Source: Escherichia coli
Lineage (GTDB): Bacteria > Pseudomonadota > Gammaproteobacteria > Enterobacterales > Enterobacteriaceae
Length of the DNA stretch: 64,000 nucleotides
Direction: 5' to 3' (one strand)
NCBI RefSeq assembly: GCF_036507355.1
Contig: NZ_AP027877.1
Shown here: piece after piece, positions 4,536-25,861 of the stretch
How positions within the stretch are numbered: position 1 is the stretch's first letter
How the letters are laid out: the number at the start of each line of letters is the position of its first letter
Notes under the pieces: generated by a model
The model's input: only the letters and a program-made list of their open reading frames with translations
Database searches by the model: none
What the model was told of the DNA's origin: nothing
Translations under genes and position numbers: made by a program

Positions 4536-4550
4536 GGTAATGACTCCAAC

Positions 4551-5054: not shown

Positions 5055-5248
5055 CCAACGCCATTCATGGCCATATCAATGATTTTCTGGTGCGTACCGG
5101 GTTGAGAAGCGGTGTAAGTGAACTGCAGTTGCCATGTTTTACGGCAGTGAGAGCAGAGATAGCGCTGATGTCCGGCGGTGCTTTTGCCGTTACGCACCAC
5201 CCCGTCAGTAGCTGAACAGGAGGGACAGCTGATAGAAACAGAAGCCAC
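4973..5248 (-). CDS. insA: IS1 InsA
   Basis: 91-aa [46 protein letters not shown], the canonical IS1 InsA. Confidence 0.95.
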
Positions 5249-5504
5249 TGGAGCACCTCAAAAACACCATCATACACTAAATCAGTAAGTTGGCAGCATC
5301 ACCCGCATCAGGATGGGAAATAGGGTAAAAAAGTAAGGAACTTCGATACCTCTACTACAGTGAATATTTTGCTGATGATACTTCCCTTTGCCAAATGAAA
5401 TTAACCTCTTTCTCTATTACCGCGTTTTTCCAGAAGCAAGAGATTGGGTATCAAGAGGCTGGCTGCTATGATATGGCGTCTTGTTTTTTAAGCGAGGAAA
5501 GATT

Positions 5505-6338: not shown

Positions 6339-6412
6339 GCGGGCGTAGTTCAATGGTAGAACGAGAGCTTCCCAAGCTCTATACGAGGGTTCGATTCCCT
6401 TCGCCCGCTCCA
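6339..6412 (+). tRNA. glyU: tRNA-Gly (anticodon CCC)
   Basis: 74-nt sequence GCGGGCGTAGTTCAATGGTAGAACGAGAGCTTCCCAAGCTCTATACGAGGGTTCGATTCCCTTCGCCCGCTCCA with cloverleaf and CCC anticodon. Confidence 0.97.
6390..6412 (+). repeat. attL core: 3' end of glyU (23 bp), direct repeat of 10585-10607
   Basis: TTCGATTCCCTTCGCCCGCTCCA occurs identically at 6390-6412 and 10585-10607. Confidence 0.85.
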
Positions 6413-6546
6413 TGACCTTTCTTAAAGTACTCCAACCTACTGAATCCTAAGGGATACGGCTTTAAGCCTTCCGCTAGTTTTACTCACTGTAACCAACACT
6501 GTAACTAAATTTGTTGAAATAGTGAGCAGACTTAAGATCTCAGTAC

Positions 6547-8178: not shown

Positions 8179-8179
8179 G

Positions 8180-8234
8180 GATGACCATAGGCGATGACCA
8201 TAGGCGATGACCATAGGCGATGACACTTGCTACT
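8180..8234 (+). repeat. tandem 13-bp iterons (GATGACCATAGGC x3 plus a variant GATGACACTTGCTACT)
   Basis: Three perfect head-to-tail copies starting one base after the integrase stop; the variant unit recurs at about 8391-8410. Confidence 0.8.
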
Positions 8235-8293
8235 ATTCCTATGGTCCCCTTTGTGGTCCTATGTGGTCCTGTGTGACCCTTTGTGTGGTCATG
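8235..8293 (+). repeat. cluster of TGGTCC/TGTGGTC short repeats
   Basis: ATTCCTATGGTCCCCTTTGTGGTCCTATGTGGTCCTGTGTGACCCTTTGTGTGGTCATG: about five degenerate copies of one motif. Confidence 0.7.
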
Positions 8294-8330
8294 TTTTGAC
8301 TCATAGTTTTCACTACTTGTCAAGCATATT

Positions 8331-8353
8331 TAATACGACTCACTATAGGGAGA
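8331..8353 (+). promoter_or_regulatory. bacteriophage T7 RNA polymerase promoter (exact 23-bp class III consensus)
   Basis: TAATACGACTCACTATAGGGAGA read directly, predicted +1 G at 8348; followed by a TCTCTCTCTGTCTCTCTC tract. Confidence 0.85.
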
Positions 8354-8584
8354 AGGGACACAAAAAGTTTTCTCTCTCTGTCTCTCTCTATGATGACACT
8401 TGCTACTACTTCAGGTAGCTTTAACTCTAACCGTAACTTATCGCATCCTTTCAGGGGCGGGATGACCAATTACAGACACCAAGCGTTCTACTTAAAATGA
8501 ATGCTTCCTGTGTGCTCTGGGTCAGTCGATAAGTGAATAGCCTTAGACATCATATTAATTATGGTCTCTAACCCCTACAGGGGC

Positions 8585-8729
8585 TTAACTTTAAGTATTA
8601 ACTTATAGTCTACTTAAAGACACAATTAAAGATTAACTTAAAGTATTAAATTATAGATTAATTAAAGACCAATTAAAGAGTAACTTTAAGTATTAACTTA
8701 TAGTCTACTTAAAGACACAATTAAAGATT
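8585..8729 (+). repeat. AT-rich iteron array with two ~48-bp direct repeats (TTAAAGA/TTAAAGAC units)
   Basis: AACTTTAAGTATTAACTTATAGTCTACTTAAAGACACAATTAAAGATT at about 8587-8634 and 8682-8729; preceded by CCCCTACAGGGG at about 8570. Confidence 0.8.
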
Positions 8730-8920
8730 GACTCTAAGGGAATACCTTAAGAGGTGATGATATTCATAATAATCAATCACCAAACCTATAGGTCTCCTCA
8801 AGGCATTACCCAGAAGCTAACTGTATGGCCCTGTATGGTCCTGTACGCCATTCTTTAGGATGCCATGTAGTTTCGTATGGCCTGATGCCTAGCGTGGCTC
8901 AGAGACCCTCCCAGTAGTAA

Positions 8921-8945
8921 ATCAATACGACTTACTAATAGGAGA
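8921..8945 (+). promoter_or_regulatory. degenerate T7-like promoter (putative)
   Basis: CAATACGACTTACTAATAGGAGACA: 18 of 23 positions match the T7 consensus, same orientation, about 230 bp upstream of the 9158 ORF. Confidence 0.45.
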
Positions 8946-9157
8946 CACACTCCGAACCACTCACCACGTGTCTCTCAAAGTTCCACCTCTCGCGCTTCAC
9001 CATACAGTAGCTCCGCACAGCTACGACACAATCATTCATTCAATCTCAAAGTCATTCTGTTTGCATCCTGTTGTCCTGCTGGTCTCCCTTCGCTTGGGGA
9101 CTTTGAGTGGGCCAGTAGGGGGCGGTTTAGTGTGCATATTTAAAAGGTAACCAAGCA

Positions 9158-9721
9158 ATGAACAATAAACATAAACATGCAGGTCATATTATCACTATTG
9201 AAGGCCACAGCTTTAAGTCTAATGAGTCTGGCATGTGGAATCTTACAGAAATATGGAAAATCCTCGGATTACCTAACAATAAGCTACCCTCTCAGTGGCG
9301 CGGCAAGGTAACAAAGAGGCTCACCGACATGCAAAAAATGCACGTCGAGAAGATTGGTATTGAAAGCATAACCTACGCAGACAAACAGGCTACCCTCAAG
9401 TATGCAGGATGGGTCTCTGAAGATTTCGAGGACATGGTCTATGCAGCCTTTGAGGCTATCCTTGAGATGCCTGAAGTTGCCACGGTCGTTGCTAATAAGA
9501 TGGTCGAACTTGGCTATCACGCTGAAGCTGAGCTATTGGAACGTCATAAGGACGACTATAGAGAAGCTATGCAGACCCTTAAAAAGATTGGTAAACGTGT
9601 TGACGGCAGGAAGCCTGAGCGCATCTACAAGGCCGTACTTAACGGTAATCTGACGAAATTTCAAGGGTTATCCATGATTTCTCGCAGCAGTGTCTGGTAC
9701 GCCCGAACAGTGAATCTATGA
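9158..9721 (+). CDS. hypothetical protein, possible KilA-N-like N-terminal domain
   Basis: 187-aa ORF with AAGGTAA upstream; N-terminal IITIEGHSFKSNESGMWNLTEIWKILG...AGWVSEDFEDMVYAAF is reminiscent of KilA-N/APSES-type domains (tentative, from recall). Confidence 0.5.
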   Translation: MNNKHKHAGHIITIEGHSFKSNESGMWNLTEIWKILGLPNNKLPSQWRGKVTKRLTDMQKMHVEKIGIESITYADKQATLKYAGWVSEDFEDMVYAAFEAILEMPEVATVVANKMVELGYHAEAELLERHKDDYREAMQTLKKIGKRVDGRKPERIYKAVLNGNLTKFQGLSMISRSSVWYARTVNL

Positions 9722-9844
9722 TGGCTATCGATCACGATAGATGCCAGCGATCAATTTCAGGTTACCGATCGAAACAAACGATCAGCACGATGGTTGCAAT
9801 CGGATATCATATTGACACTTGTCTGACATCCTGAAGGTATCAAT

Positions 9845-10318
9845 ATGTTTGGGCTTTTTAAGAAAAAGGCAAAAGCGGAAAGGTGTTATGATGTAACACG
9901 CATTCAATACGAGCTGGTTGTAATGTCATCTAAGCTGATAAAAAAACAGACCGATATGTTCAAAGTAATAAAAGGGGAGCGAGAGGAGGCTTTAGGAGAC
10001 CCTTTATTATCAGCAGGGTATATAACGCCATGGGTCATTGGATATTGCACTGGTCTCCTGGATGCAGTGACTCAGACGGAGGCTAACAGGATGGCATTTA
10101 CATCAGAAATGCTTGGGCTTCTTTTTGCTGCAGTTTTCGGTGATGATAAGTCTCTTGAGGCCATGGGAACTTATATAGCCTGTAACGAAGCCTCCTCACC
10201 AGACCATGGATTTCATGTTACGTATGAGCTTTATATGTCTGGTCTAGCGAAAGCGTTTAATGAGGTATGTGAGGATAAACCTGCGATAGGACTTCTGAAC
10301 TATTTAATGCAGGATTGA
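9845..10318 (+). CDS. hypothetical protein (157 aa)
   Basis: ORF with no recognisable motifs; TTGACA at about 9810 upstream; last ORF before attR. Confidence 0.45.
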   Translation: MFGLFKKKAKAERCYDVTRIQYELVVMSSKLIKKQTDMFKVIKGEREEALGDPLLSAGYITPWVIGYCTGLLDAVTQTEANRMAFTSEMLGLLFAAVFGDDKSLEAMGTYIACNEASSPDHGFHVTYELYMSGLAKAFNEVCEDKPAIGLLNYLMQD

Positions 10319-10584
10319 AAATTTCCCACAAAAATCTCAGTGCCTATCTAACAGTAATAACCCTGCAACATTCCCCCGTATACCTCCAGAAGTTATCCAG
10401 AAGCCGAAGTAGGTATCCTGTCATGTATTTGAATCATCAAAGTTGTTCGTTCTATTCCTCTTTAGGGAATATTACAGCCCTACAGCCTTGACCAGAGATC
10501 ACTTGATGTGTAACCATAACTGTAACCAAAAGGATTCATCATCCTTTAAGAAACAATTGGTTAGTGAGTGATTGTCTTCGATAC

Positions 10585-10607
10585 TTCGATTCCCTTCGCC
10601 CGCTCCA
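10585..10607 (+). repeat. attR of the 4.2-kb element (also proximal att of the next islet)
   Basis: 23-bp copy of the glyU 3' end; flanking sequence diverges from the tRNA. Confidence 0.85.
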
Positions 10608-10771
10608 AACTCAAGTCTCCTGAAGTCTACCAAACTCAATTTTTCCTTGATAAATCAGCAGTTATAGCTTTCTATTAGTCTATTGAACTCAATTGTACTC
10701 CCCCAGGGTCAAGCTCAATGTGGGGGTATGGATGGGGGTATAATTGTACCCCCTGCTGAGAGGTACCCCCA

Positions 10772-11998
10772 ATGAAGCTGACTGCTCGTCAGGTTGAAAC
10801 TGCGAAACCCAAAGAGAAGCCCTACAAACTGGCCGATGGTGGTGGGCTTTACCTGCTGGTTAATCCCAACGGTAAAAGATACTGGCGTCTCAAATACCGT
10901 TCGTTAGGTAAAGAGAAGCTGCTCGCTATTGGCGTTTATCCCGATGTTTCTTTAGCTGAGGCCCGAAGTAAGCGTGAGGATGCTAAAAGAACATTAGCGG
11001 CTGGCAACGATCCCTCTCTTGAACGAAAAATTGAGAAACTTAGTCGTCAACAAGACGCTGAAAACTCGTTTGAGGCTATCACACGGGAGTGGTATCAGCG
11101 TCGCTATGACCGCTGGTCTGTCTCCTACCGCGAAGAAATGCTGAGAACCTTTGAGAAAGATGTATTTCCTTATATCGGTCACAGGCCAATCAAAGATATC
11201 AAGCCGATGGAGTTGCTTGCAGTTCTTTCAAAGATAGAAGCACGAGGGGCAACAGAGAAAGTCCGCAAGGTTCGTCAGCGTTGTGGAGAGGTCTGGAAGT
11301 ATGCCGTTGTGACTGGGAGGGCCGAGTACAATCCAGCACCTGATCTAGCCAGCGCCGTGAGTCCTCATGAGAAAGAGCACTATGCTTTTTTAACCCAGGA
11401 TGAATTGCCTGAGTTTCTTCGGACTCTGAACGCCTATGCCGGTAGTGTGCTTGTTAAGATTGCGATGCAATTGCTCATTTTAACAGGAGTAAGGCCAGGG
11501 GAGTTGAGGCAAGCGGAGTGGCAGGAGTTTGATTTTGAGAAAAAGGTTTGGAATGTACCAGCGGAACGTATGAAAATGCGCCGCCCTCATCTTGTTCCAT
11601 TATCAAGCCAGGCAATTGACCTGCTTAATCAACTTAAACCCATAACGGGAGCAGGAGCGTTATTATTCCCAGGACGTAATAATCCTAAGAAACCGATGAG
11701 CGATATGGCATTGACTGTGTTGGTCAGGCGTATCGGCTATGCCGGGCGCGTTACAGGGCATGGATTCCGCCACACGATGAGTACCATTTTGCATGAGCAG
11801 GGATTCAACTCGGCCTGGATTGAGTTACAGCTGGCTCACGTCGATAAGAACTCAATTCGTGGGACGTATAACCATGCTCAATATTTGGAAGGTCGGCGGG
11901 AGATGATGCAGTGGTATGGAGATTTCATCGGTCAAGCAGGCAAATCCGGATCATCGCTAGCTTATGCAGCTATTAGCTTGACTGCTGAATTAGAGTGA
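10772..11998 (+). CDS. P4-type tyrosine integrase
   Basis: 408-aa ORF; N-terminus MKLTARQVETAKPKEKPYKLADGGGLYLLVNPNGKRYWRLKY typical of P4-family integrases; HGFRHT and Y-containing C-terminal box; sits 165 bp after the tRNA-derived repeat. Confidence 0.9.
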   Translation: MKLTARQVETAKPKEKPYKLADGGGLYLLVNPNGKRYWRLKYRSLGKEKLLAIGVYPDVSLAEARSKREDAKRTLAAGNDPSLERKIEKLSRQQDAENSFEAITREWYQRRYDRWSVSYREEMLRTFEKDVFPYIGHRPIKDIKPMELLAVLSKIEARGATEKVRKVRQRCGEVWKYAVVTGRAEYNPAPDLASAVSPHEKEHYAFLTQDELPEFLRTLNAYAGSVLVKIAMQLLILTGVRPGELRQAEWQEFDFEKKVWNVPAERMKMRRPHLVPLSSQAIDLLNQLKPITGAGALLFPGRNNPKKPMSDMALTVLVRRIGYAGRVTGHGFRHTMSTILHEQGFNSAWIELQLAHVDKNSIRGTYNHAQYLEGRREMMQWYGDFIGQAGKSGSSLAYAAISLTAELE

Positions 11999-12008
11999 GA
12001 AGGGGCAA

Positions 12009-12056
12009 GTTGAGCCTCTTCGCTGAGAAGAGGCTCAACGTGAACCTATTTTTTTG
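12009..12056 (+). terminator. intrinsic terminator after integrase
   Basis: GTTGAGCCTCTTC-GCTG-AGAAGAGGCTCAAC hairpin followed by a T7 run. Confidence 0.7.
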
Positions 12057-12153
12057 GGAGTTAATACTTTTTGCAATTTTTTTTTTCGTGCCGTTGGATG
12101 TAAAGATCTGTGGGGGTTAGGGAAGAAAATCATGCTATGTTAGTCTTTGAGGA

Positions 12154-13131
12154 GTGAGTCAAAATGTTATAACTTTTTCAAAGAGGCGTTACATCGTGAA
12201 AGTCGTTTTTAATGTTAATGGTAAAAAAGTTCCGCTCAAATCTCTGCAATATATAAGTAAAGCAAATCAACTCGAAGTTATGCGGAATTGGTTTTTTGAG
12301 AATTTTGAAGATCCCGCGAACTCTTGCCCGTATGAATCCCGTGAAGGCGGGTATGCTTACATTTATGGGGGCCCATACGAAGCAAGTGAAGAGTTGCAAG
12401 CGATGTTTGAAGGACACGTGAAATTTGATTATATCCAAGAATTAGTCAATGAATTACAAGAACAGTGCTATGAATGGTCTGGTAATTCAAATAATATTAA
12501 TGATTGGTACGATGAAGACTTGTATGATGCTGTTACATCTTCTGAACATCCTTTTTCTAAGTTCGTTGAAAGCATTGATGGAATAAAATTGCTGTCTAAA
12601 GGCGAATTTAAAGATAAACAAAAAGATCATCTGCTTAGCATCCTATATATTAATGTCATTACAGCCCTGGAAACACTTTATGTTGAGTTATTTATTAACT
12701 CTATAGATAAAAACGACTCATATCTTGCTGACTTTATAGAAAAAGGTAAGACGGAATTTAAGGTAAATAAAGGAATATTGGCTTTGCCATTCAAAGGAGA
12801 AACTATTGAAAACATGAGGGCGCAATTAATTAAGGTAATTAAAGAGCATTTGATTAGTGCAAGTTGGCATAGTACAAACAAAGTTGTAGGACGTTATAAA
12901 GCTACATTTGATATAAAAGTACATAAAGAGTGGCCAATAGATGTGATCGAAATAGCAACTCAAAAGCGTAATCATTTAGTCCATCGTGGCGGGAAAGATA
13001 AAGAAGGTAATTCGGTAGTGATTACTGAACAGGATTTAGAAATGTTGCTGGATCACGCACAATCTCTTGGAGAAAAATTGTTTGATAGCCTTGAGGTGGC
13101 ATTACAGAAAAAAGATGAGAATGAATTTTGA
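12154..13131 (+). CDS. hypothetical protein with C-terminal HEPN-like R-x4-H motif (putative abortive-infection protein)
   Basis: 325-aa ORF; C-terminal KRNHLVHRGG fits the HEPN R-x(4-6)-H signature; AT-rich gene inside an integrase islet. Confidence 0.5.
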   Translation: MSQNVITFSKRRYIVKVVFNVNGKKVPLKSLQYISKANQLEVMRNWFFENFEDPANSCPYESREGGYAYIYGGPYEASEELQAMFEGHVKFDYIQELVNELQEQCYEWSGNSNNINDWYDEDLYDAVTSSEHPFSKFVESIDGIKLLSKGEFKDKQKDHLLSILYINVITALETLYVELFINSIDKNDSYLADFIEKGKTEFKVNKGILALPFKGETIENMRAQLIKVIKEHLISASWHSTNKVVGRYKATFDIKVHKEWPIDVIEIATQKRNHLVHRGGKDKEGNSVVITEQDLEMLLDHAQSLGEKLFDSLEVALQKKDENEF

Positions 13132-13182
13132 GTCTCGGGGTAGGTTGATAGTGCTACCGATAACGAGCAAGCAAATGATACT

Positions 13183-13202
13183 CGGCAGGCAGTGCCTGCC
13201 GG
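13183..13202. terminator. bidirectional hairpin between convergent genes
   Basis: CCGGCAGGCA-G-TGCCTGCCGG perfect inverted repeat between the 13131 and 13207 stop codons. Confidence 0.55.
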
Positions 13203-13206
13203 AGGA

Positions 13207-14910
13207 TTACTTTTTACTTCCAAATTGAATGCCGAGAAGTTTATTCTCTGCTTTATCGCCACGTAGAGTAAGAACAATTTTTGATTTCAGTTCTAACATT
13301 TCGATTTCAGATAAAGTTGTTTCCATAGCATTAAAGTTTTCAGTGTTTAAAGATGCTATATATTGCTTTCCGCTTCGTTTTAATGACTGATTGACAAATG
13401 AGAACCATCTTGCGCGAACACCTGGATCTATATCAGCAAAAAGACGGTTATCATGCCATAGCATATCCATGGCATGGTTTTCACCACATGTAAATACTAA
13501 CCAGTCAAAGCATAATATCCTAGCATCATTGATCCCATCCGAATCATCACCCTCGATTTGGATGCTTAGATCATAACGAATTTTGTTGTCACCAGTATTA
13601 ACATCCAAAACTATTCCTGCTGGTACCCTTGGGTACATTATTTCTGCGAGCTCAGCAAAAATTTTATCGTATTCTGAAAGAGGATTTGTAGAAGCATAGT
13701 TTACCGCTAATCTGTCTTGTTCAACTTTTCGTTCTCTTAGATTTTGAGCTTTCTGTTGAAGGTTAATAGAAAAATTTAAATAATCATGTAACCTTTCTTT
13801 TTCTTCTTTAAATTCAGCTAGTTGTCTAGCTATGACTGCGTATTCATCAAATGCTTTCTTGCCTTGCAGGGATTCCAAATATGAATCACGTAATGCTGAA
13901 ATATCCTTAATGTCAATTTTAAGAGATTCAATTTCTAACAAAAGTTTTACTTTATCATTTTCAAGTCTTTTCTTTCTGTTAAAAGATAATGATTTGTGAA
14001 AATTTTCAACTGACTCAAAATGGGCCAATGTTTCTGGCTTGAAAATCTCTTGTAAGCCATTGTACAGTTCAAGAAGCTCTTCTCTTGAAATGTCAGGGTG
14101 TTCTAATAAAGTTTTTTCTATATTATTTACTTTAAATTCAGCTATATTTTTGTTTTTTTCAACTTCTCGTAATTTTATAGTTAAACTGTTTGTTTCATTC
14201 TCAATAGCTCTGTATTGCTCGTGAACTTGAAATGCATTCAGTTCATCCTGCAGTCTTGGGATCTCTCTTTCTAGCCACTCATAGCGTACTTTAGGTTGAG
14301 AGCCTGCTCTAAACATGTCTTTTAGAATATCATCGTCTTGCCAATTTTTTAGCGATTGACTTACTTTATCCAGCTCTTGCTTATTATTTCTTTTAGATAA
14401 TATTAAATTATGATCTATACCGAGAAGAAATGCGGTACGAAGCAATGCTTCAAAGTCTTGCTCCTTTTTTGTCCTAGTTGGACTGATGCAGTCATCTCTG
14501 GTATATCGCGAAAAACGCTTAAATAAAGATCTGAATGATAAATACGGAATGTTATTCTCAAGATTAAATATTCCTATTTTATCTAATAAATCTTTAAATG
14601 CTTTTAAAGATATTGTTTTGTCATTTAATAATAATTTTTTTCCATTGCCCGTTCTAGATATTAAGTACTCAACTCCATTATGAGAAAAAAGTAAAGAGAA
14701 CCACCAATCTGGAACTGCTGAAGTTAATTTTTTATCAGCATTAGCTCCTAAACAATGTTGAATGAGACCGAGAATAAGTGTCTTACCGACTCCGTTACTA
14801 CTGCCTTCTTTTTCTTTAGAGCTATCACCAATGATCAACGTTAGTCCTGTATCATTGAAATGCACTGGATGAAAAGTTGGCTGATCGCAAGTTAAGCGAA
14901 TTAACTTCAT
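13207..14910 (-). CDS. SMC/ABC-type P-loop ATPase with long coiled-coil region (putative anti-phage ATPase)
   Basis: 567-aa ORF; Walker A GSSNGVGKT near the N-terminus; long K/E-rich heptad-like middle; start codon abuts the stop of the upstream 101-aa gene. Confidence 0.65.
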   Translation of the reverse strand: MKLIRLTCDQPTFHPVHFNDTGLTLIIGDSSKEKEGSSNGVGKTLILGLIQHCLGANADKKLTSAVPDWWFSLLFSHNGVEYLISRTGNGKKLLLNDKTISLKAFKDLLDKIGIFNLENNIPYLSFRSLFKRFSRYTRDDCISPTRTKKEQDFEALLRTAFLLGIDHNLILSKRNNKQELDKVSQSLKNWQDDDILKDMFRAGSQPKVRYEWLEREIPRLQDELNAFQVHEQYRAIENETNSLTIKLREVEKNKNIAEFKVNNIEKTLLEHPDISREELLELYNGLQEIFKPETLAHFESVENFHKSLSFNRKKRLENDKVKLLLEIESLKIDIKDISALRDSYLESLQGKKAFDEYAVIARQLAEFKEEKERLHDYLNFSINLQQKAQNLRERKVEQDRLAVNYASTNPLSEYDKIFAELAEIMYPRVPAGIVLDVNTGDNKIRYDLSIQIEGDDSDGINDARILCFDWLVFTCGENHAMDMLWHDNRLFADIDPGVRARWFSFVNQSLKRSGKQYIASLNTENFNAMETTLSEIEMLELKSKIVLTLRGDKAENKLLGIQFGSKK

Positions 14911-15216
14911 TTAACTTTCCTTATTTTTTAATTTGTCATAATTGCAACAGATTGGCATTATTCTGTTTTCATTATCTAGCGTTATTTGTTTGATGCAAAA
15001 AAGAATGTCTACGGCAAGTATAAATTGTGTAAAAGAGGGCGTGATTATCGTTGATTTATTTTTCCGCTCTATTTTTGTCCATAGTTCTTCTATGGATACC
15101 GGTCCATCAATTAACGAACGGATGTATCCTGCAATCGCAATTAGGGAGTTACTAAACCTAACATGCTTATGTGGCAGAAGCATTGCTTGGATGTTCATAA
15201 GCATCACATGTCTCAA
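14911..15216 (-). CDS. small hypothetical protein coupled to the ATPase
   Basis: 101-aa ORF whose stop (14911-14913) is immediately followed by the ATPase ATG (14908-14910), suggesting translational coupling. Confidence 0.5.
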   Translation of the reverse strand: MRHVMLMNIQAMLLPHKHVRFSNSLIAIAGYIRSLIDGPVSIEELWTKIERKNKSTIITPSFTQFILAVDILFCIKQITLDNENRIMPICCNYDKLKNKES

Positions 15217-15390
15217 AATATTTAGCTAAAATTAACTCTGCAGCAAATCGATAACTCGCGACCGCACTTGTGGGAACTTGCGGGGGAAGGAGTTTATCTA
15301 TCATCCAAGTATATCTTAAATCTGCATAATTGTGGTTATCTTCAGTTATCGCCAATTTACTTTTTGCATAAGTATCTCTAACTTCTTGAG

Positions 15391-16173
15391 CTATAGTTTG
15401 TTCAAGACCACAAGACCATTATCAACAGAATCTAAAAATTCATTTATCAAATATAGTTGATAGCTAAAAGATTCCAGCCTGCTTTTTATTGGTTTTGTAA
15501 TACCATTTATTTTTATTTTATCTTCGAAGTCCGGGGCTGTTTCACTTAAAAAATTCATGGGTGAAGAAGATTTTTGTGCTAAAAAAGTCAATACTTCACC
15601 AACAGCTCGAGTATCTGTAAAGTCTAAATTAACCTCAGGAATGAAACCTACAATATCTTGCTTTTCACCCTCGGATAATGACATAAACTTTTGAAGGAGC
15701 TCCATCCCACCCATTGCACCTGCGTGATTAAGACTTTTACTGATTGCAAGTGTATTTAATGAAAGTCCAACAGGTGCTGGAATACCCTTGAAATAATCAT
15801 TCATTACAAAAGTATATTTTGATACTTTCCCCCATTTGGCGACTAATTTATCAAAGTCGCCAATCGATTTATTAACAGCTTCTAGCTCTTTGGTTTGATT
15901 TGAAGGTTTAGGTCCATAAACTTGGAAGTAATGAGCCTCATGAGCAATCCACCCATCATTCCCGCCATCTCCCCAGTTTCCCCAAGGGGAAACAGCTTGA
16001 AAGCCAGGAGTCGCGTATTGCATAACCTTCGAAAAAAGCGCCTGAAAACTGTCTCCCATACATTCATGTACTTTTAACCGAAAGAACTGTCTGTAGAGGT
16101 AATCTTGCTGTGTCGAACTCATTTTCCTCTCATCCATGATGAACACTTTTGATGATAATATCCTCTCATTCAT
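15391..16173 (-). CDS. hypothetical protein (260 aa), first gene of the ATPase operon, candidate effector
   Basis: ORF with WGNWGDGGNDGWIAHEAHYF segment; no confident family assignment. Confidence 0.5.
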   Translation of the reverse strand: MNERILSSKVFIMDERKMSSTQQDYLYRQFFRLKVHECMGDSFQALFSKVMQYATPGFQAVSPWGNWGDGGNDGWIAHEAHYFQVYGPKPSNQTKELEAVNKSIGDFDKLVAKWGKVSKYTFVMNDYFKGIPAPVGLSLNTLAISKSLNHAGAMGGMELLQKFMSLSEGEKQDIVGFIPEVNLDFTDTRAVGEVLTFLAQKSSSPMNFLSETAPDFEDKIKINGITKPIKSRLESFSYQLYLINEFLDSVDNGLVVLNKL

Positions 16174-16332
16174 TGTTGTAAACCTATGATTAGCAAAATT
16201 GGAGATGCTTTCACTTTAGAGTTGGTATCTAAAGGTTATAAATTATCAAAACAGGTTGTATAGATATCAAATTGAATACGATTTGACATATATGTTAATC
16301 TGATTAGTATCAGAGAAAAACAGGAGTCCTTA

Positions 16333-16683
16333 ATGTCGCTTATCCCCCTACAACTCTTCAAAAACCTCTCCGATGAAACCCGTTTGGGCATCGTGTTGCT
16401 GCTTAGAGAGATGGGAGAGCTGTGCGTGTGCGACCTTTGCACTGCGCTAGAACAGTCGCAGCCCAAGATCTCCCGTCATCTGGCAATGCTCCGGGAAAGT
16501 GGTCTATTGCTGGATCGTAAACAGGGCAAGTGGGTTCACTACCGCTTATCCCCGCATATTCCTTCCTGGGCCGCTCAGGTGATTGAGCAGGCCTGGTTAA
16601 GCCAACAGGACGATGTGCAGGCCATCGCCCGTAAGCTGGCATCAGCAAACTGCTCTGGTAGCGGTAAGGCTGTTTGTATCTAA
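16333..16683 (+). CDS. arsR: arsenical resistance operon repressor ArsR
   Basis: 116-aa ArsR/SmtB-family protein with metal-binding ELCVCDLC and HTH. Confidence 0.9.
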   Translation: MSLIPLQLFKNLSDETRLGIVLLLREMGELCVCDLCTALEQSQPKISRHLAMLRESGLLLDRKQGKWVHYRLSPHIPSWAAQVIEQAWLSQQDDVQAIARKLASANCSGSGKAVCI

Positions 16684-16730
16684 AAAATTTGCCTGAACAT
16701 ATATGATTTTTCGAATGCGAGGTGTTCAGA

Positions 16731-17093
16731 ATGAAAAAGTTAACGGTGTTTGACCCGGCAATGTGCTGCAGTACCGGCGTATGTGGCTCAGATGTCGATC
16801 AGGTTCTGGTTGATTTTTCTGCTGATGTGCAGTGGCTGAAAGGACGTGGCGTACAGGTTGAACGTTACAACCTGGCGCAGCAGCCCATGAGCTTTGTTCA
16901 AAATGAGAAAGCGAAAGCATTCCTCGAAGCATCTGGAGCAGAAGGGCTTCCGTTACTGCTGTTGGACGGTGAAACGGTGATGGCAGGGCGATACCCAAAA
17001 CGCGCTGAGCTGGCTCGCTGGTTCGGTATACCGCTGGAGAAGGTAGGTTTAGCTCCCACCAGCTGCTGTGGTGGTAATACTTCCTGTTGCTGA
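16731..17093 (+). CDS. arsD: arsenical metallochaperone ArsD
   Basis: ATG at 16731 with GAGGTG SD; MKKLTVFDPAMCCSTGVCG with conserved Cys12/13/18. Confidence 0.9.
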   Translation: MKKLTVFDPAMCCSTGVCGSDVDQVLVDFSADVQWLKGRGVQVERYNLAQQPMSFVQNEKAKAFLEASGAEGLPLLLLDGETVMAGRYPKRAELARWFGIPLEKVGLAPTSCCGGNTSCC

Positions 17094-17110
17094 GTATGTC
17101 AGGAGGACAT

Positions 17111-18862
17111 ATGAAATTCTTACAGAATATCCCGCCTTACCTGTTTTTTACCGGTAAGGGAGGTGTAGGAAAAACTTCTATTTCCTGCGCGACGGCAATC
17201 CGCCTTGCTGAACAGGGTAAGCGGGTTTTGCTGGTCAGTACCGATCCGGCCTCCAATGTCGGCCAGGTATTCGATCAGGCTATCGGTAACACCATTCGCC
17301 CTGTGGCAGCAGTTCCTGAACTTTCCGCTCTGGAAATCGACCCGCAGGAAGCCGCCAAACAATATCGTTCCAGAATCGTTGCTCCTATCAAAGATCTTTT
17401 GCCTGATGACGTTGTTAACAGTATCAGCGAGCAGCTTTCAGGAGCCTGTACCACTGAGATTGCGGCGTTTGATGAGTTCACCGGCTTATTGACAGACGCT
17501 TCCCTGCTGACCCGCTTCGATCACATCATTTTTGATACAGCGCCGACGGGCCACACGATTCGCCTTCTCCAGCTTCCCGGTGCCTGGAGTAACTTCATTG
17601 AGAGTAACCCGGATGGTGCTTCCTGTCTTGGCCCAATGGCCGGACTGGAAAAGCAGCGTGAGCAGTATGCTCATGCGGTAGAGGCGTTATCCGATCCTGA
17701 ACGTACCCGCCTGGTTCTGGTTGCAAGACTGCAAAAATCCACGCTGCAGGAAGTCGCCCGCACCCATGAAGAACTCGCCGCAATTGGCCTGAAAAACCAG
17801 TACCTGGTGATTAATGGTGTGCTGCCTAAAGCCGAAGCTGAACATGACGCCCTGGCCGCTGCGATATGGCAACGTGAACAGGAGGCACTGGCAAATCTTC
17901 CTGCCGGTTTATCCGGGTTGCCGACAGATACCCTATTACTACAGCCAGTCAATATGGTTGGTGTTTCAGCATTGAAGGGACTGCTGGATACCCGTTCTGA
18001 GGCATTACCGCTCCCGGTAACGAACATCCAGTACACGCCTGAAAACATATCGCTCTCTGGCCTGGTCAATGATATCGCCCGCAGTGAACACGGCCTGATT
18101 ATGCTGATGGGCAAAGGTGGCGTGGGTAAAACCACGATGGCTGCTGCCATCGCCGTAAGGCTGGCGGATATGGGATTTGATGTCCATCTCACCACCTCAG
18201 ATCCCGCTGCACATCTCAGTACCACGCTGAACGGTAGCCTTAATAACCTGCAGGTCAGCAGGATTAATCCACACGAAGAAACCGAACGCTATCGCCAGCA
18301 TGTTCTTGAGACGAAGGGTAAAGATCTGGACGAAGCAGGGAAACGGCTACTGGAAGAGGATTTGCGCTCTCCCTGTACTGAAGAAATTGCCGTGTTTCAG
18401 GCCTTTTCCAGGGTGATTCGTGAAGCGGGTAAACGGTTTGTTGTCATAGATACCGCCCCTACCGGACACACGCTGTTGCTGCTGGATGCGACCGGGGCTT
18501 ACCACCGAGAGATTGCCAAAAAAATGGGGAGTAAAGGTCATTTTACTACCCCAATGATGCAGCTTCAGGATCCGGATAGAACCAAAGTTCTGCTTGTTAC
18601 GCTTCCTGAAACCACACCGGTTCTGGAAGTGGCAAACCTGCAGGCTGACCTTGAAAGAGCGGGGATTCATCCGTGGGGCTGGATTATCAATAACAGCCTT
18701 TCCATTGCGGATACGCGTTCTCCGTTGCTTTGCCAGCGCGCCCGGCAGGAACGGCCTCAGATTGAGGCTGTTAAGAATCAGCATGCTGAGCGTATAGCGC
18801 TTGTTCCGGTGCTGGCGTCAGAGCCCGCCGGTATTAAAAAGCTCAGAGAGTTGATGAGTTAA
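17111..18862 (+). CDS. arsA: arsenite-transporting ATPase ArsA
   Basis: ATG at 17111 after AGGAGG; two nucleotide-binding halves each with GKGGVGKT; about 583 aa. Confidence 0.92.
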
Positions 18863-18909
18863 TTTTTTGGCATATACAGGGCGGCAAAGTCGCCCTGTCA
18901 GGAGGTTTT

Positions 18910-20199
18910 ATGTTACTGGCAGGCGCTATTTTTGTCCTGACCATTGTTTTGGTTATCTGGCAACCAAAGGGATTAGGGATCGGCTGGAGTGCAATGCTGG
19001 GCGCGGGACTGGCTCTGATATCAGGCGTTGTGCATGTGGGCGATATTCCGGTGGTGTGGAATATCGTCTGGAACGCGACGGCGACCTTTATTGCCGTAAT
19101 TATTATCAGCCTGCTGCTTGATGAGTCCGGTTTTTTCGAATGGGCAGCGCTGCACGTTTCCCGCTGGGGTAACGGTCGTGGACGTTTGCTCTTTACGTAT
19201 ATCGTTCTGCTCGGTGCGGCGGTGGCGGCACTGTTTGCCAACGATGGTGCGGCACTTATTCTGACGCCGATAGTCATCGCCATGCTGCTGGCATTAGGGT
19301 TCAGCAAAGGCACCACGCTGGCATTCGTCATGGCTGCCGGTTTTATTGCCGATACGGCCAGCCTGCCGCTTATCGTGTCGAACCTGGTGAATATAGTCTC
19401 GGCGGACTTCTTTGGACTGGGCTTCACTGAGTATGCGTCGGTAATGGTGCCGGTGGATATTGCCGCTATTATCGCCACGCTGGTGATGCTGCATCTGTTC
19501 TTCCGCAAAGATATTCCACCGACTTACGACCTGGCTCTCCTGAAAGCACCGGCAAAGGCGATTAAAGATCTGGCAACCTTCAGAACCGGCTGGATAGTTT
19601 TAATTCTTCTGCTGGTTGGGTTCTTTGTCCTCGAGCCGCTCGGTATTCCCGTTAGCGCGATTGCGGCTGTTGGAGCTGTGATCCTGTTTGCTGTAGCTAA
19701 ACGAGGCCATGCCATTAACACCGGCAAAGTGCTGCGCGGTGCGCCATGGCAGATCGTCATCTTCTCATTGGGGATGTACCTGGTGGTCTACGGTCTGCGC
19801 AACGCCGGGCTAACCGAATACCTTTCAGGTGTGCTGAACGTACTGGCGTATAAAGGACTCTGGGCCGCAACGCTGGGTACTGGTTTCCTGACGGCTTTCC
19901 TCTCTTCCATCATGAACAACATGCCTACCGTGCTGGTTGGCGCTCTCTCGATCGATGGAAGCACCGCATCCGGCGTTATTAAAGAGGCGATGATCTACGC
20001 CAACGTGATTGGCTGCGATCTGGGGCCGAAAATTACACCTATTGGTAGCCTGGCAACGCTGCTCTGGCTGCATGTACTTTCACAGAAGAATATGACCATC
20101 ACCTGGGGATACTATTTCCGCACCGGGATCGTCATGACTCTGCCTGTGCTGTTTGTAACGCTGGCCGCGCTGGCGCTACGTCTCTCTTTCACTTTGTAA
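18910..20199 (+). CDS. arsB: arsenite efflux pump ArsB
   Basis: 429-aa polytopic membrane protein, ArsB family. Confidence 0.92.
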
Positions 20200-20211
20200 T
20201 GAGATACTGAT

Positions 20212-20637
20212 ATGAGCAACATCACCATTTATCACAACCCGGCCTGCGGCACGTCGCGTAATACGCTGGAGATGATCCGCAACAGTGGTACTGAACCGAC
20301 CGTAATTCTTTACCTTGAGACTCCACCGTCTCGCGATGAGCTGGTCAAACTCATTGCAGATATGGGCATTTCAGTCCGGGCTTTGCTGCGCAAAAACGTC
20401 GAGCCTTATGAAGAACTGGGGCTTGCAGAAGATAAGTTTACTGACGATCAGTTAATCGGCTATATGCTGCAGCATCCGATCCTGATTAACCGCCCGATTG
20501 TGGTGACACCGTTGGGAACGCGCCTGTGCCGTCCTTCCGAAGTGGTACTGGATATTCTTCCGGATGCGCAAAAAGGCGCATTTGCAAAGGAAGACGGCGA
20601 GAAAGTCGTTGATGAAACAGGTAAACGATTGAAATAA
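20212..20637 (+). CDS. arsC: arsenate reductase (glutaredoxin-coupled) ArsC
   Basis: 141-aa ORF MSNITIYHNPACGTSRNTLEMIR with catalytic Cys12. Confidence 0.92.
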   Translation: MSNITIYHNPACGTSRNTLEMIRNSGTEPTVILYLETPPSRDELVKLIADMGISVRALLRKNVEPYEELGLAEDKFTDDQLIGYMLQHPILINRPIVVTPLGTRLCRPSEVVLDILPDAQKGAFAKEDGEKVVDETGKRLK

Positions 20638-20643
20638 ATATAA

Positions 20644-20661
20644 AGGGGGCTGATGCCCCCT
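20644..20661. terminator. hairpin between convergent arsC and acetyltransferase genes
   Basis: AGGGGGC-TGAT-GCCCCCT stem-loop. Confidence 0.5.
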
Positions 20662-20671
20662 TATTCCTGCC

Positions 20672-21208
20672 TCAGAGCATACGATCTGAATCTTCTGGCA
20701 GAGTACTATTCCCTTCACCAAGTTTCATTTGCAGCAAAACCGTGTCAAGCCAGCGGCCATGCTTGAAACCAATGTCCTTTAATGTACCTATTTCAGTAAA
20801 TCCTGCGCGGATATGAAGCGCTACAGAAGCGACGTTAGCGCTGTCACCCACAACAGCAATCATCTGGCGATAGCCTTCGGACTCGGCCCATTTTAATGCA
20901 TGATCGAGCAGTGCTTTTCCGACGCCCTGTCGCTGATAAGCCGAATCAATATATATCGAATTTTCGACCGTATACCGATAGGCATGGCGTTCGCGGTAAC
21001 GGGAAATATAACAGTAGCCGATGACCGTATCGCCATGCAGAGCGACATACCATGGGAATCCTCGAGACTGAATGCTCCTCAGTCGGTTAAGCATTTCCTG
21101 CGTATCCGGAGGTTCGGTTTCGAAGCTACCTGTACCATGCAGAACATGGTGAGCATAGATATTGCGTATCGCGGTAATGTGCTGTTCTTCAGCATTAATA
21201 ATGTGCAT
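20672..21208 (-). CDS. GNAT N-acetyltransferase, phosphinothricin/arsinothricin acetyltransferase-like (ArsN-like)
   Basis: 178-aa ORF with GNAT acetyl-CoA motif QRQGVGKALL; PAT/Bar-like; located in an ars cluster, where ArsN1-type enzymes occur. Confidence 0.6.
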   Translation of the reverse strand: MHIINAEEQHITAIRNIYAHHVLHGTGSFETEPPDTQEMLNRLRSIQSRGFPWYVALHGDTVIGYCYISRYRERHAYRYTVENSIYIDSAYQRQGVGKALLDHALKWAESEGYRQMIAVVGDSANVASVALHIRAGFTEIGTLKDIGFKHGRWLDTVLLQMKLGEGNSTLPEDSDRML

Positions 21209-21332
21209 CGTGTTACTCCAGTAATGGTGTTTTACAAACTACCGGAATTCGCGACAGCAGGTTAAGTACTTAAACTTATAACCTGTATAAGCAAAAGTTT
21301 GGCTGCAGTAAATGGGGCCGTAGCCCCATCTA

Positions 21333-22034
21333 TTAGCCTGCCATTTTTGCCAGCAGAGCCGCACCCACTGGTTCTTCGTTCTGCAGTGGCGTTAATGCAA
21401 TACGCTTTGCAAACTGCTCTGCAACGTCATTTATCAGCGGCAGTTCGCGACTGGCTCGGGTTACCAGGAACGGTGAGGACGGTTTCGCAGCAGCCAGACT
21501 GCTATTGATTACCCATGCCCATGGTTCAATTTCAGCCCGACGCAAATCCTGTTGCAGGTTTGCCGCTTCCAGCACCGGTGTCGTTTCGGCAAGCGTCACG
21601 ATAATCACCTTCGTCTTCTCCGGGTCATCGGCCAGAGACTGCTGGGGACGCCGGTTAAGGTCGGATTCTTCAATCAACCACCGCTCATCTTCAGGTAATG
21701 CCTGCAATGTTTCAGGCAGGCAAATATCCAGCGTTGAGATTGCATCAGTGGATGGATCAGTTAATGGGGCATCATCTTCCAGATCAACGAATTCCCTGGT
21801 GGTGCGGTACTCATCAATCAGCAGATTCCTCGCCGCCCGATACAGCCAGGCTCGCGGATTCTCCATTTCGCAGAAACTGTCTGAATGAGCGCGGGCACGC
21901 AGGAATAGCTCTTGTAGAAGGTCTGCTGCTTTTTCGCTATCACCTGTCTTCTATGTCAGAAAGCGAGAGAGTTCGGCTTCATGTTGCTGCCAGAACACGC
22001 TCATGCAGTTGTTGAATGCCGTTACATCACTCAT
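21333..22034 (-). pseudogene. degenerate ECF sigma factor-like gene with in-frame amber stop, fused to a 3' fragment of arsA
   Basis: Minus-strand frame from ATG 22034 reads MSDVTAFNNCMSVFWQQHEAELSRFLT-stop (TAG = plus 21951-21953), then ...ENPRAWLYRAARNLLIDEYR (ECF region 2-like), ending in KVIIVTLAETTPVLEAANLQQDLRRAEIEPWAWVINSSL, which parallels the ArsA C-terminus. Confidence 0.6.
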
Positions 22035-22042
22035 ACCAGCCC

Positions 22043-22586
22043 TCAAATTTTGCTCTGATTAACCCGCCGTGAAAGTTCTTCTGCAGATTCTTTTCGTTCG
22101 CTGTAGCGATCAACGAGATAGGCTGAGTTACCTCGGGTCAGCAGAGTAAATTTCACCAGTTCTTCCATCACATCCACGATTCGGTCGTAATAAGACGACG
22201 GTTTCATTCGTCCATCTTCATCAAATTCCTGCCAGGCTTTTGCCACAGAGGACTGATTCGGGATGGTGATCATCCGCATCCAGCGGCCAAGAATTCGCAT
22301 CTGGTTTACGGCATTGAAAGACTGAGAGCCACCGCAGACCTGCATAACGGCCAGTGTCTTACCCTGCGAAGGGCGAACAGCGCCTTCTGATAACGGTATC
22401 CAATCAATCTGGGCTTTCATGATGCCGGTCATCGCACCATGGCGTTCAGGGGAACACCACACCATCCCTTCGGACCAACGAACCAGCTCGCGCAGTTCCA
22501 TGACTTTAGGATGTGAGTCAGGCGCATCATCAGGAAGAGGCAAGCCTGAGGGATTGAAGATCCGAACCTCTTCGCCCATGGCTGCA
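22043..22586 (-). pseudogene. arsH: arsH (NADPH-dependent FMN reductase), 5'-truncated by IS insertion
   Basis: ArsH-like sequence from [17 protein letters not shown] onward; the first ~42 codons of the track ORF (22587-22714) lie inside the IS element. Confidence 0.7.
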
Positions 22587-22604
22587 TGAATCGCCACGGA
22601 TAAT

Positions 22605-23417
22605 CTAGACACTTCCGAGCCGTTGATAATACTGGTTTTCATATTCTGTCGGTGACATCTGATCGCTGGAACCATGCCGACGCTTACTGTTATAAAACAT
22701 TTCGATGTAATCAAAAATATCGCTGCGGGCTTCTTCCCGCGTTCCGTAGATCTTTTTCTTTATCCGTTCGCGTTTCAACAACTGGAAAAAGCTTTCTGCA
22801 ACCGCATTATCATGGCAGTTACCGCGACGGCTCATGCTGCCCTCCAGGCCGTGTGATTTCAGGAACGACTGCCACTCATGGCTTGTGTACTGACTGCCCT
22901 GATCCGAATGAACCAGCACCTGTTTTTGGGGATTACGGCGCCATACAGCCATCAGCAGTGCGTTCAGGACAATGTCCTTTGTCATCCGGGATTGCATGGA
23001 CCAGCCGATAATTTTGCGTGAGAACAGATCAACAACCACGGCAAGATACAGCCAGCCTTCGTGGGTCCTGATGTAGGTTATGTCCGTTACCCAACGCTTA
23101 TCCGGAGCATCCGGATTGAACTGTCGCTGGAGCCTGTTGGGCGACACGATACTGGCCTCGCCTTTACGTGCCCGCGGGCTCCGGTATCCGACCTGAGCCT
23201 TTATCCCGACACGTTTCATCAGTCGCCAGACTCTGTTCACTCCGCACTGTTGCCCGCTGTCCCGCAGATCCAGATGGATTTTGCGATAACCATAGACGCA
23301 TCCCGATTCCAGCCAGAACTGTTTAATCTGCCCTGTCAGCCTCAGGTCTGCCTGATGGCGTTGTGAATGCGGCTGCTGAAGCCAGGCGTAAAAACCACTG
23401 GGATGAACATCCAGCAC
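22605..23417 (-). CDS. IS3-family transposase OrfB (DDE integrase domain)
   Basis: DDE catalytic region (WVTDITY...[10 protein letters not shown]...[11 protein letters not shown]); the true frame probably extends upstream to overlap orfA for -1 frameshift fusion. Confidence 0.85.
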
Positions 23418-23473
23418 CCGACAGAGCAGGCGAACAGGCCAGCAACAGGTGTTGTCACGGATAAAGGCGTACC

Positions 23474-23758
23474 TCAGTCGGACAGCTTTGCGAAGTACGC
23501 CGCGGCTTTTTTTAATATGTCCCGTTCGTCGGTAACCCGCTTCAGCTCTTTCTGGAGACGGCGGATCTCGGCCTGAGCATCTGACTGTTCTTTATTAGCG
23601 GAAGAATCCGGACCGTACTTCTTTATCCAGGCGTAAAGGCTGTGGGTGGTGATATCGAGACGTGTTGCAACGCTGGCAACAGAATAACCGCGATCAACAA
23701 CCTGTTTGACTGCTTCAATTTTAAACTCTTCGGGATAACGCTTACCGCTCATGGGCAC
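23474..23758 (-). CDS. IS3-family transposase OrfA (HTH)
   Basis: 94-aa ORF with HTH and leucine-zipper-like C-terminus (RRLQKELKRVTDERDILKKAAAYFA). Confidence 0.85.
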   Translation of the reverse strand: MPMSGKRYPEEFKIEAVKQVVDRGYSVASVATRLDITTHSLYAWIKKYGPDSSANKEQSDAQAEIRRLQKELKRVTDERDILKKAAAYFAKLSD

Positions 23759-23812
23759 CTCTCTTTAAGCCATCTTAAATGACTCTGAGGTGTCTGTTAA
23801 ACCCGTGGCGAT

Positions 23813-24790
23813 TCACTCTAATGCTTTTTGAGCAGCAAGTTCAAGTTCACTTTTTCCATGAAGTGCCAAAGACATATGGCATTCCGCTAGAAGGCAATAA
23901 CATTCTGTTTTTAGCGTCTGTATATCACTTTTATTTTGTAATCCATCAAATATAGTCATGGCCCTGTAAATGCTTTCAGGGGTGAACTCGTAAAGTTCTT
24001 TCTTTCCGGCTAACATTTCATCTGATAAATAATGATTCTTATATCCTTGGTCCTGCTTAGCTAATCTTACAGATCGTTCTGGTTTATGTACCGTTTGAAG
24101 GATATTATCTATAATAAATTGTGATGTATTATGTAGTTCATCAACAGGGAGATGATTACTGGCGATGAGGAAAAGGTTTTTAGCGTCGATCAACTCAATG
24201 TATAAAGTGTTCACTGCATTATTCTGGTTTATTCTTCCTGTAACGAAATAATCTGGCTTGAATCTGCTCAAGAATGAATTTTGAGATATGTGGTCATTAC
24301 AAAAATTTGTCGCAGCCATCGGATAGGTATAGAGACCATCGATTTTTTTATTTGAAATGATTTGTACTAATTCCTGATTAAGTATTAATGGATCCAGTGT
24401 ATTCAATGAAGTGGTGAAAGGGAATATAGCTATGGAATAGTCTGAAGTATTATCTTCATTAATTTTAGTTTTGAAAACCTGCCCGCTGAAACGATAACCT
24501 TTCCGGTAGATTGTTTCTATGCAGCGATCATAGCCAATTTTTTCAAAAATGCAGCGCAAAGAATAGATACATCTTGTCAGGGACTCGTCACTAACAATAA
24601 TATTTTTCCATACTGATTCGATGATCATATCTTTCAGTACAACATGACCAGCGGATTCAAGTAATACTATTAATACACCTAACTCTTTCGGTGGAATATA
24701 AACTTGCTCATTTCCTTGAGTAAGAATTCCATCTTCCGTGAGCGTTAATCCCTCAAGAAAATGATATGAGAATTTATTTTCTAAGTCCAT
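23813..24790 (-). pseudogene. ygeH: ygeH-like HilA/ToxR-type regulator (ETT2), 3'-truncated by the IS3-family element
   Basis: 325 aa with N-terminal winged-helix region; the reading frame stops on the TGA that is the first triplet of the IS terminus; K-12 YgeH is about 458 aa (recall). Confidence 0.65.
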
Positions 24791-25123
24791 TAGTTAACCT
24801 CTATGAAAAAATTGGTTTCTTGCATCCTGCATAAGCAATAGAAATTATGGCTATTCATATTTATATGTCATTAACGCTACAGGAGTTTACATTCGACATA
24901 TCTATGGTTGTGTTCACTAATTTATCTTAGGAATTCAGTGATGTAATCTGAAATAGCCTTATTCAATTTTGATAAAGTAAAATGCTCTCTAAAGCATTGA
25001 AAAATAATGATTTATTGTATGCTCTTAACTGTTTTAAGATGCTGATTTAAGAAAAGATAAGAGGTGCTGGTTATAGTGGTTAATGCACTATAACCAGCAA
25101 TTTTAACCAAATGATTGTAATGC

Positions 25124-25615
25124 TTAGTTATTATCTTCTGAATTATCGGTTAAGAGTTCGACATATGCCTGCGCTTTACTCTTAACACTATCATCCTCAC
25201 AATTGTTAATAATATGAAAGAAACATTGCATTGCGTTATCGATATTTTTAGCCCCAATTTGACATTGACCCATACGATAAATAACTGAATAGTCATCATA
25301 TGGCGAGTAATTATAACTTAGCTTGTAAAGGTCATATGCTTGTTGATATTTCTTTTTTGACTGACATACTGATGCAAAACCTTTTAGATATTCATGATTT
25401 TCGAACGCATAAATGCACAATAATTTATAATAAATTTCTGCCTCCGTTATATTACCCTTTTCATGGTAGTCGAATGCATATGCATATATTCTATCAAGGA
25501 TATCAGGAGTCAAACCATGTAGTAATGCCAGATTTTCTCCTTTCGATAATGCGTGTTTTAGTTGATTTGCCCATTCATCACTATTATTGAATATTTCAAT
25601 TGTTTCTGTGTCCAT
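25124..25615 (-). CDS. ygeG: TPR-containing type III secretion chaperone-like protein YgeG
   Basis: 163-aa acidic TPR protein, SicA/class II chaperone-like; ETT2 position. Confidence 0.7.
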   Translation of the reverse strand: MDTETIEIFNNSDEWANQLKHALSKGENLALLHGLTPDILDRIYAYAFDYHEKGNITEAEIYYKLLCIYAFENHEYLKGFASVCQSKKKYQQAYDLYKLSYNYSPYDDYSVIYRMGQCQIGAKNIDNAMQCFFHIINNCEDDSVKSKAQAYVELLTDNSEDNN

Positions 25616-25861
25616 AATATTCCTCTGTGATGTGTCTCGTGATGCTAAATTATTATTGATTGACTCATTAATATTTCTACATTTATCTTTTTTAAATTAT
25701 GAGTTTTAAGCTTGCATTGCTTATGAGTATATTTCTTCATTATTAGTAAAATTACTGTCCACTACAAACTAATTACATTATTAGTTATTTTGATAATATT
25801 CACCTTATTAGTAATCTTAATTACGACATTCCATAAATGCCTTAATGTGCATGACCATGAT

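Follow-up and report, generated by a model that had tools for sequence, protein, structure and literature searches.

An ISEhe3-type insertion sequence at a probable deletion join between an ars genomic island and ETT2 genes in Escherichia coli

ISEhe3, originally described from plasmid pPATH of Pantoea agglomerans, is tabulated as an IS3-family element of the IS51 group, a group featuring TG ends and direct repeats of 3-4 bp (PMC10425158). The element analyzed here resembles it in its two ORFs, its TG...CA ends and the 3-bp duplications found at other copies; the present copy differs in that it lacks a duplication and lies at what is very probably a deletion join. Insertion of ISEhe3 together with a 24.5-kb deletion was reported for the IncC plasmid pT5282-Ct2 (PMC6872532). 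The two cases share the same IS name, tied to a loss of tens of kilobases of adjacent DNA, but the DNA affected is a plasmid backbone in pT5282-Ct2 and the chromosome here.

The second system with which the locus can be compared is ETT2, which is situated next to glyU and exists in many deleted isoforms; a 1.3-kb transposase insertion in ygeH is also on record (PMC11068852). The present case has in common with this attrition a deletion at the glyU-linked ETT2. It differs in that the join between ygeH codon 325 and arsH is absent from 5,426 complete genomes, and in that half of a second island was removed as well. K-12 and many other strains reportedly keep nothing more than fragments of ETT2.

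In this report, we examined a 64-kb stretch of E. coli DNA, hereafter the window, in which one IS3-family element separates a truncated arsH, part of an ars genomic island, from a truncated ygeH. Our main conclusion is that the IS very probably marks a deletion join: an ancestor with a full ars island and ETT2 genes would have lost the interval between them in an IS-dependent event. The pair of breakpoints is new, while the kind of event is already known, that is, an IS-associated deletion involving a common element at a locus known for decay.

A complete element without a target duplication

The features of the locus are collected in Table 1. The 13-bp terminal repeats TGAATCGCCACGG are perfect at both ends of the IS, which are of the TG...CA type, and all 11 other copies compared start and end with the same bases. 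The slippery run lies within TTAAAAAAAGCC at 23504-23515; a predicted frameshift across it would give an OrfAB fusion of 382 aa ending at IS position 1211, which matches the PGAP CDS 'IS3 family transposase, programmed frameshift' of identical copies. The NCBIfam profile NF033516 (transpos_IS3) gives 338.7 bits (cut-off 160). The element thus combines a DDE transposase with an rve core, two ORFs with a predicted -1 frameshift, TG...CA repeats and, at other copies, 3-bp duplications, all of which place it in the IS3 family. It is intact and presumably active.

Table 1. Features of the glyU-ygeH region, in window coordinates
Feature	Position	Strand	Remarks
tRNA-Gly(CCC) glyU	6339..6412	+	Integration site of islands and ETT2 (PMC11068852)
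Small island	6413-10607		4.2 kb; 543-aa integrase; ends in glyU 3'-end copy
att repeat	10583..10607	+	glyU 3'-end copy, 2 mismatches, between small and ars islands
ars genomic island	10608..22586	+	Proximal 12 kb of 22.3 kb kept; distal part and attR lost
ars-island integrase	10772-11998		408 aa
arsA	17087-18862
arsB	18910-20199
arsC	20212-20637
arsH remnant	22043..22584	-	Codons 59-237 of 237 plus stop; from alignments to intact arsH of 23S01245-7 and L26
Junction bases CA	22585..22586		Part of neither IS nor intact arsH
IS3-family insertion sequence, ISEhe3-type	22587..23815	- (transposase strand)	Complete, intact, 1229 bp
Right terminal inverted repeat	22587..22599	+	TGAATCGCCACGG
orfB frame	22605..23417	-	DDE/rve catalytic domain; Pfam rve E = 1.4e-33, plus HTH_21, rve_2
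orfA	23474..23752	-	92 aa, coordinates include stop codon; HTH_Tnp_1, Pfam PF01527, E = 4e-20
A7 slippery run	23507..23513	-	Predicted -1 frameshift site
Left terminal inverted repeat	23803..23815	-	TGAATCGCCACGG; first triplet TGA doubles as stop of truncated ygeH
ygeH remnant	23816..24790	-	Codons 1-325 of 458, winged-helix DNA-binding domain kept (NF008870, Pfam)

The element is widespread. No fewer than nine further records, of unrelated E. coli, contain copies identical to it over the full length (100%). Copies covering nearly the full length were found in 178 of the 5,426 complete E. coli genomes, as well as on 702 plasmids from Klebsiella, Escherichia, Enterobacter, Citrobacter, Pantoea and others. 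A single E. coli genome can show as many as 21 matches to the IS, whole or partial, and the exact OrfB sequence is present on 606 contigs of the protein collection. An exact protein look-up returned an identical 92-aa OrfA named 'ISEhe3 transposase A' in UniRef; searches of the literature for an IS name by end sequence and by length gave no match. Since the name is taken from this OrfA label, the element could be an isoform of the ISfinder reference AF327445.

On the plus strand, the flanks of the present copy read GCA-IS-CTC (...GGCTGCA-IS-CTCTAATGC...), and neither a 3-bp nor a 4-bp duplication is present. Perfect 3-bp duplications (CCG, CGC, AAG and TAC) border four of the 11 other copies; as such a match is expected by chance in 1 case out of 64, we conclude that simple insertion by this IS makes 3-bp duplications. 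The flanks of the remaining seven are unrelated. For one of these, the G4/9 copy, the left flank is shiA, and on the right the element is bordered by internal sequence of a leucine-rich-repeat gene, which is intact in another strain, where it adjoins fliE. The G4/9 copy thus marks a rearrangement as well, joined exactly, and its reading as a simple insertion whose duplication (AAC/TAC) is imperfect is ruled out. Of the top-scoring copies sampled, seven of 11 have no duplication; in this sample, the element seems to sit at rearrangement junctions no less often than it occurs as a simple insertion.

Two truncated genes and the bases beside the element

A sequence-only reading of the window had described one IS3-family element that truncates arsH at its 5' end and ygeH at its 3' end, with no target-site duplication. 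This description holds: homology to arsH ends at 22584 and homology to ygeH starts at 23816, and the flanks, GCA versus CTC, differ when the ends of the IS are fixed against the 11 other copies.

On the ygeH side, the junction is exact, as homology to the intact gene, present in many E. coli, begins precisely at the base following the element. The minus-strand ORF at 23813-24790 encodes 325 aa, and its stop codon, TGA at 23815-23813, lies inside the IS repeat, of which it is the first triplet, as the same reading had stated. YgeH is a 458-residue regulator of the HilA family, and the C-terminal third is gone in the remnant: the NCBIfam profile NF008870 aligns over positions 1-325 of 458 with 766.8 bits, below the cut-off of 800, so that this is not a full-length YgeH. 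The Pfam Trans_reg_C domain is found at residues 28-101.

On the arsH side, the first 172 nt of the gene are missing, that is, 57 codons plus 1 nt relative to an intact arsH of 237 codons. The remnant aligns with positions 55-219 only of the 219-position TIGR02690 profile, and it is consequently not a full-length ArsH; likewise, the Pfam FMN_red alignment starts at profile position 30, as compared to position 1 in intact ArsH, and the N-terminal segment of the FMN-reductase fold is absent. The claim that IS sequence replaces the ArsH N terminus was thus borne out, with one refinement. Indeed, arsH homology stops at 22584 and the IS begins at 22587, which leaves two bases, CA, that are not part of the IS. 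Intact arsH reads GGCTG-TCAGCAATC in both 23S01245-7 and L26, and the window reads GGCTG-CA followed by TGAATC of the IS, so that TC stands in the intact gene where the window has CA. Allelic variation is an unlikely source of this difference, given that the adjacent 1385 bases contain a single difference and that two independent intact alleles both have TC. Either one base was lost from the arsH triplet TCA beside the IS end, or two bases were replaced; imprecise repair of a transposition gap or flap, a later point deletion and an error in the assembly consensus are possible causes.

Owing to this irregularity, ArsH codons 59-237 are in frame with an ORF internal to the IS (TTG 22714, ATG 22642). 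A rescue of arsH by an IS-derived N terminus was rejected, because with this extension the Pfam alignment still starts from profile position 22, and the gain is only 2.4 bits. A 15-residue stretch of the IS-derived leader superficially resembles the region of the GSxRxxS motif lost from ArsH, a resemblance that we regard as due to chance. It is extremely improbable that the junction is more than debris, in the sense that the leader borne by the IS could drive a hybrid ArsH or, separately, that YgeH(1-325), which keeps its DNA-binding domain, could work as a modified regulator now that the ETT2 apparatus is lost.

The interval between arsH and ygeH in other genomes

Left of the element, the window has the order recJ-prfB-lysS, IS1, actS, glyU, small island and ars island. 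The arsA, arsB and arsC ORFs correspond in position to the arsRDABC operon of the 23S01245-7 annotation; beyond arsC come a GNAT gene, an ORF fusing sigma-70 and arsA parts, and the arsH remnant. Right of the element are the truncated ygeH, ygeG, and ORFs that fit yqeK, yqeJ, yqeI, yqeH, yqeG and yqeF, an assignment made from order and size only by comparison with annotated strains. A third copy of the glyU-derived att repeat was not found in the window (23S01245-7 has three copies), which indicates that the distal end of the ars island is missing.

Three minor features of the ars island deserve mention. The fusion ORF, at 21333-21866 on the minus strand, joins the N terminus of a sigma-70-family protein to the C terminus of a second ArsA; L26 has intact sigma70-arsD2-arsA2 at this place, and the internal deletion behind the fusion is common, base for base, to the window and 23S01245-7. 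Between the integrase and arsR, positions 13207-16173 hold a DUF2326 / 'ABC-three component system' gene set, according to the annotation of 23S01245-7 and L26. Within it, the 260-aa ORF at 15391-16173 seems short next to its homologue, to which the annotation of these two strains gives 315 aa.

In 23S01245-7 (NZ_OZ197100.1), arsH and ygeH have the same order and orientation as in the window, and approximately 33.8 kb separates the two breakpoints, or 29.3 kb without the small island of that strain. The correspondence with the window is close: the ars-island integrases are identical (408/408), and the 1385 bases left of the junction contain one mismatch (1384 identical) and no indels. The ars island of this strain is 22.3 kb long and bounded by glyU-derived repeats. 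Past arsH, its distal 10.3 kb consists of an arsR-type gene and a block with antirestriction, radC and cbtA/yeeU genes; after the island come a 4.45-kb island, GH15, ghoT, ETT2 secretion genes, ygeI and ygeH. The integrase of the 4.45-kb island is 91% identical to that of the small island of the window. Of these related small islands, that of 23S01245-7 is distal to the ars island and that of the window proximal to it, from which we conclude that the two islands were acquired independently.

L26 has the two genes again in the same order and orientation, with the breakpoints 3.9 kb apart. Its related ars island shows 96% identity and runs, with no annotated IS, into a truncated transglycosylase gene, which is followed by ygeI and ygeH. 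The join between island and transglycosylase gene, at 33388-34189 of L26, has neither an annotated IS nor a distal att repeat; it is an independent, IS-free loss of the end of the ars island and of most of ETT2.

Among complete genomes, the closest core-genome relatives of the window reach only some 99.2% identity over 25 kb of core, so that its lineage is missing from this set and the ancestral state is deduced from distant strains. Neither junction was found in the 5,426 complete E. coli genomes (megablast, 21300-25700), and exact 32-mer scans for both junctions returned nothing in collections of metagenomes and of species-representative genomes. An apparent match to a junction in LD91-1 was rejected, as the IS of that strain is elsewhere and its ygeH is intact. 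Nor did the searches of the 5,426 complete E. coli genomes and of the metagenome and genome collections reveal the presumed intermediate, a simple insertion in arsH or ygeH at these positions.

Origin of the join and its consequences

As the flanks of the IS are collinear with the references and have the same orientation, and as the interval is absent, the event was a deletion rather than an inversion. Had oppositely oriented copies produced an inversion, arsH 3' would be joined to ygeH 3', but the remnants keep the order and orientation of the references. A simple insertion of the IS is likewise rejected, because the flanks differ and are not contiguous in the references. The sequence-only reading had proposed that the IS is a deletion or recombination join and not a simple insertion, and the collinear positions of arsH and ygeH, 3.9-33.8 kb apart in the references, agree with this. 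It had also suggested a comparison with genomes carrying intact ygeH and arsH, which supports the deletion join, and a look for other copies of the IS, none of which is present elsewhere in the 64-kb window.

From these observations, we infer the ancestral layout, the size of the deletion and the route of recombination. The ancestor would have carried, downstream of glyU, a complete ars island of 22 kb and then ETT2 genes ending in ygeI-ygeH, and an IS-dependent event would have removed the entire stretch between arsH codon 58 and ygeH codon 325. The loss would amount to about 29-34 kb if this ancestor was like 23S01245-7, and to at least 3.9 kb if it was like L26. A single copy of the IS would be left with one flank from each gene, hence the lack of a target duplication. 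The lost segment could, in principle, be located elsewhere in the genome, of which 64 kb was seen.

Two routes lead to this same product. In the first, copy-out/paste-in transposition, by which such pairs readily arise, would have left one copy of the IS in arsH and another, of like orientation, in ygeH; homologous recombination between them would then have excised the interval together with one copy. In the second, a single IS copy would have been inserted first in ygeH or in arsH, and its transposase would have deleted the interval in one step, either by the joining of an IS end to the other gene or via the junction of a tandem IS dimer. We rate recombination between two copies as slightly more likely, and place it first because transposition in the IS3 family normally leaves the donor site intact. 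Indeed, members of this family, such as IS911, IS2 and IS3, transpose mainly by copy-out/paste-in via a circle, and leave the donor site untouched. This general behaviour speaks against deletion by a single copy, which we rate as only slightly less likely; it would nevertheless yield exactly what is seen, that is, one copy with an old flank, a new flank and no duplication, by an IS that is intact and presumably active, and the 24.5-kb plasmid deletion published with an ISEhe3 insertion is a precedent for it (PMC6872532). The CA at 22585-22586 is unaccounted for by precise strand transfer from a single copy, and it equally counts against our preferred explanation, since neither precise route predicts it.

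The structure could also be an artefact of assembly, in which two real IS copies, in arsH and ygeH, with the interval between them, were collapsed as a repeat by the assembler. Such a collapse across two direct repeats would give exactly this arrangement, and the abundance of the element (OrfB on 606 contigs, up to 21 at least partial matches per E. coli genome) makes it conceivable. We nevertheless consider it improbable: the 64 kb is contiguous and reads through both this IS and an IS1, the junction is bordered by clean sequence (one difference and no indels over 1385 bases), and real genomes, L26 for example, have deletions of this region that arose independently. Finally, a simple insertion into an older arsH'/ygeH' deletion join, the duplication having been lost later or never made, is more improbable still, for although L26 demonstrates that an IS-free deletion join between the ars island and an ETT2 remnant occurs and the CA on the arsH side hints at imprecision, the IS would have had to land exactly on the old junction and lack its 3-bp duplication, and none of the genomes searched has such an IS-free join.

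If the join arose by deletion, as we think very probable, arsH lost its FMN-binding N terminus and the arsR-type regulator gene upstream, and the remaining ETT2 secretion genes disappeared. The loss of attR means that the ars island can no longer be excised by its own integrase; a tRNA-linked island would thus have been fixed in place by loss of its distal attachment site. For ETT2, this is one more documented route of decay, and it carries little weight beyond the strain. In annotations, arsH and ygeH are to be marked as pseudogenes, and neither ArsH function nor an ETT2 system should be attributed to the strain.

A second deletion lies nearby. A complete IS1 of 768 bp (4536-5303) is present between lysS and actS, 17 kb upstream of the ISEhe3-type element. 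Its flanks, GGGGTTTTT and CGCATCAGG, are unrelated and show no duplication of 8-9 bp: the left flank lies 43 bp past the lysS stop codon and the right flank belongs to the xdhA-actS intergenic region, which implies that the whole idi...xdhA core block is absent. We take this block to span some 33 kb of the K-12 map. Adjacent deletions are a classical trait of IS1, and the likeness to the arsH-ygeH join extends to unrelated flanks, no duplication and, here, a missing core block, whereas the IS family is different. The IS1-associated loss of idi-xdhA and the deletion at the ISEhe3-type element lie on opposite sides of glyU, and together point to this locus as a hotspot of IS-driven gene loss in the lineage. 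An independent IS1-bounded loss of the idi...xdhA block was seen in ET650, in which idi is kept.
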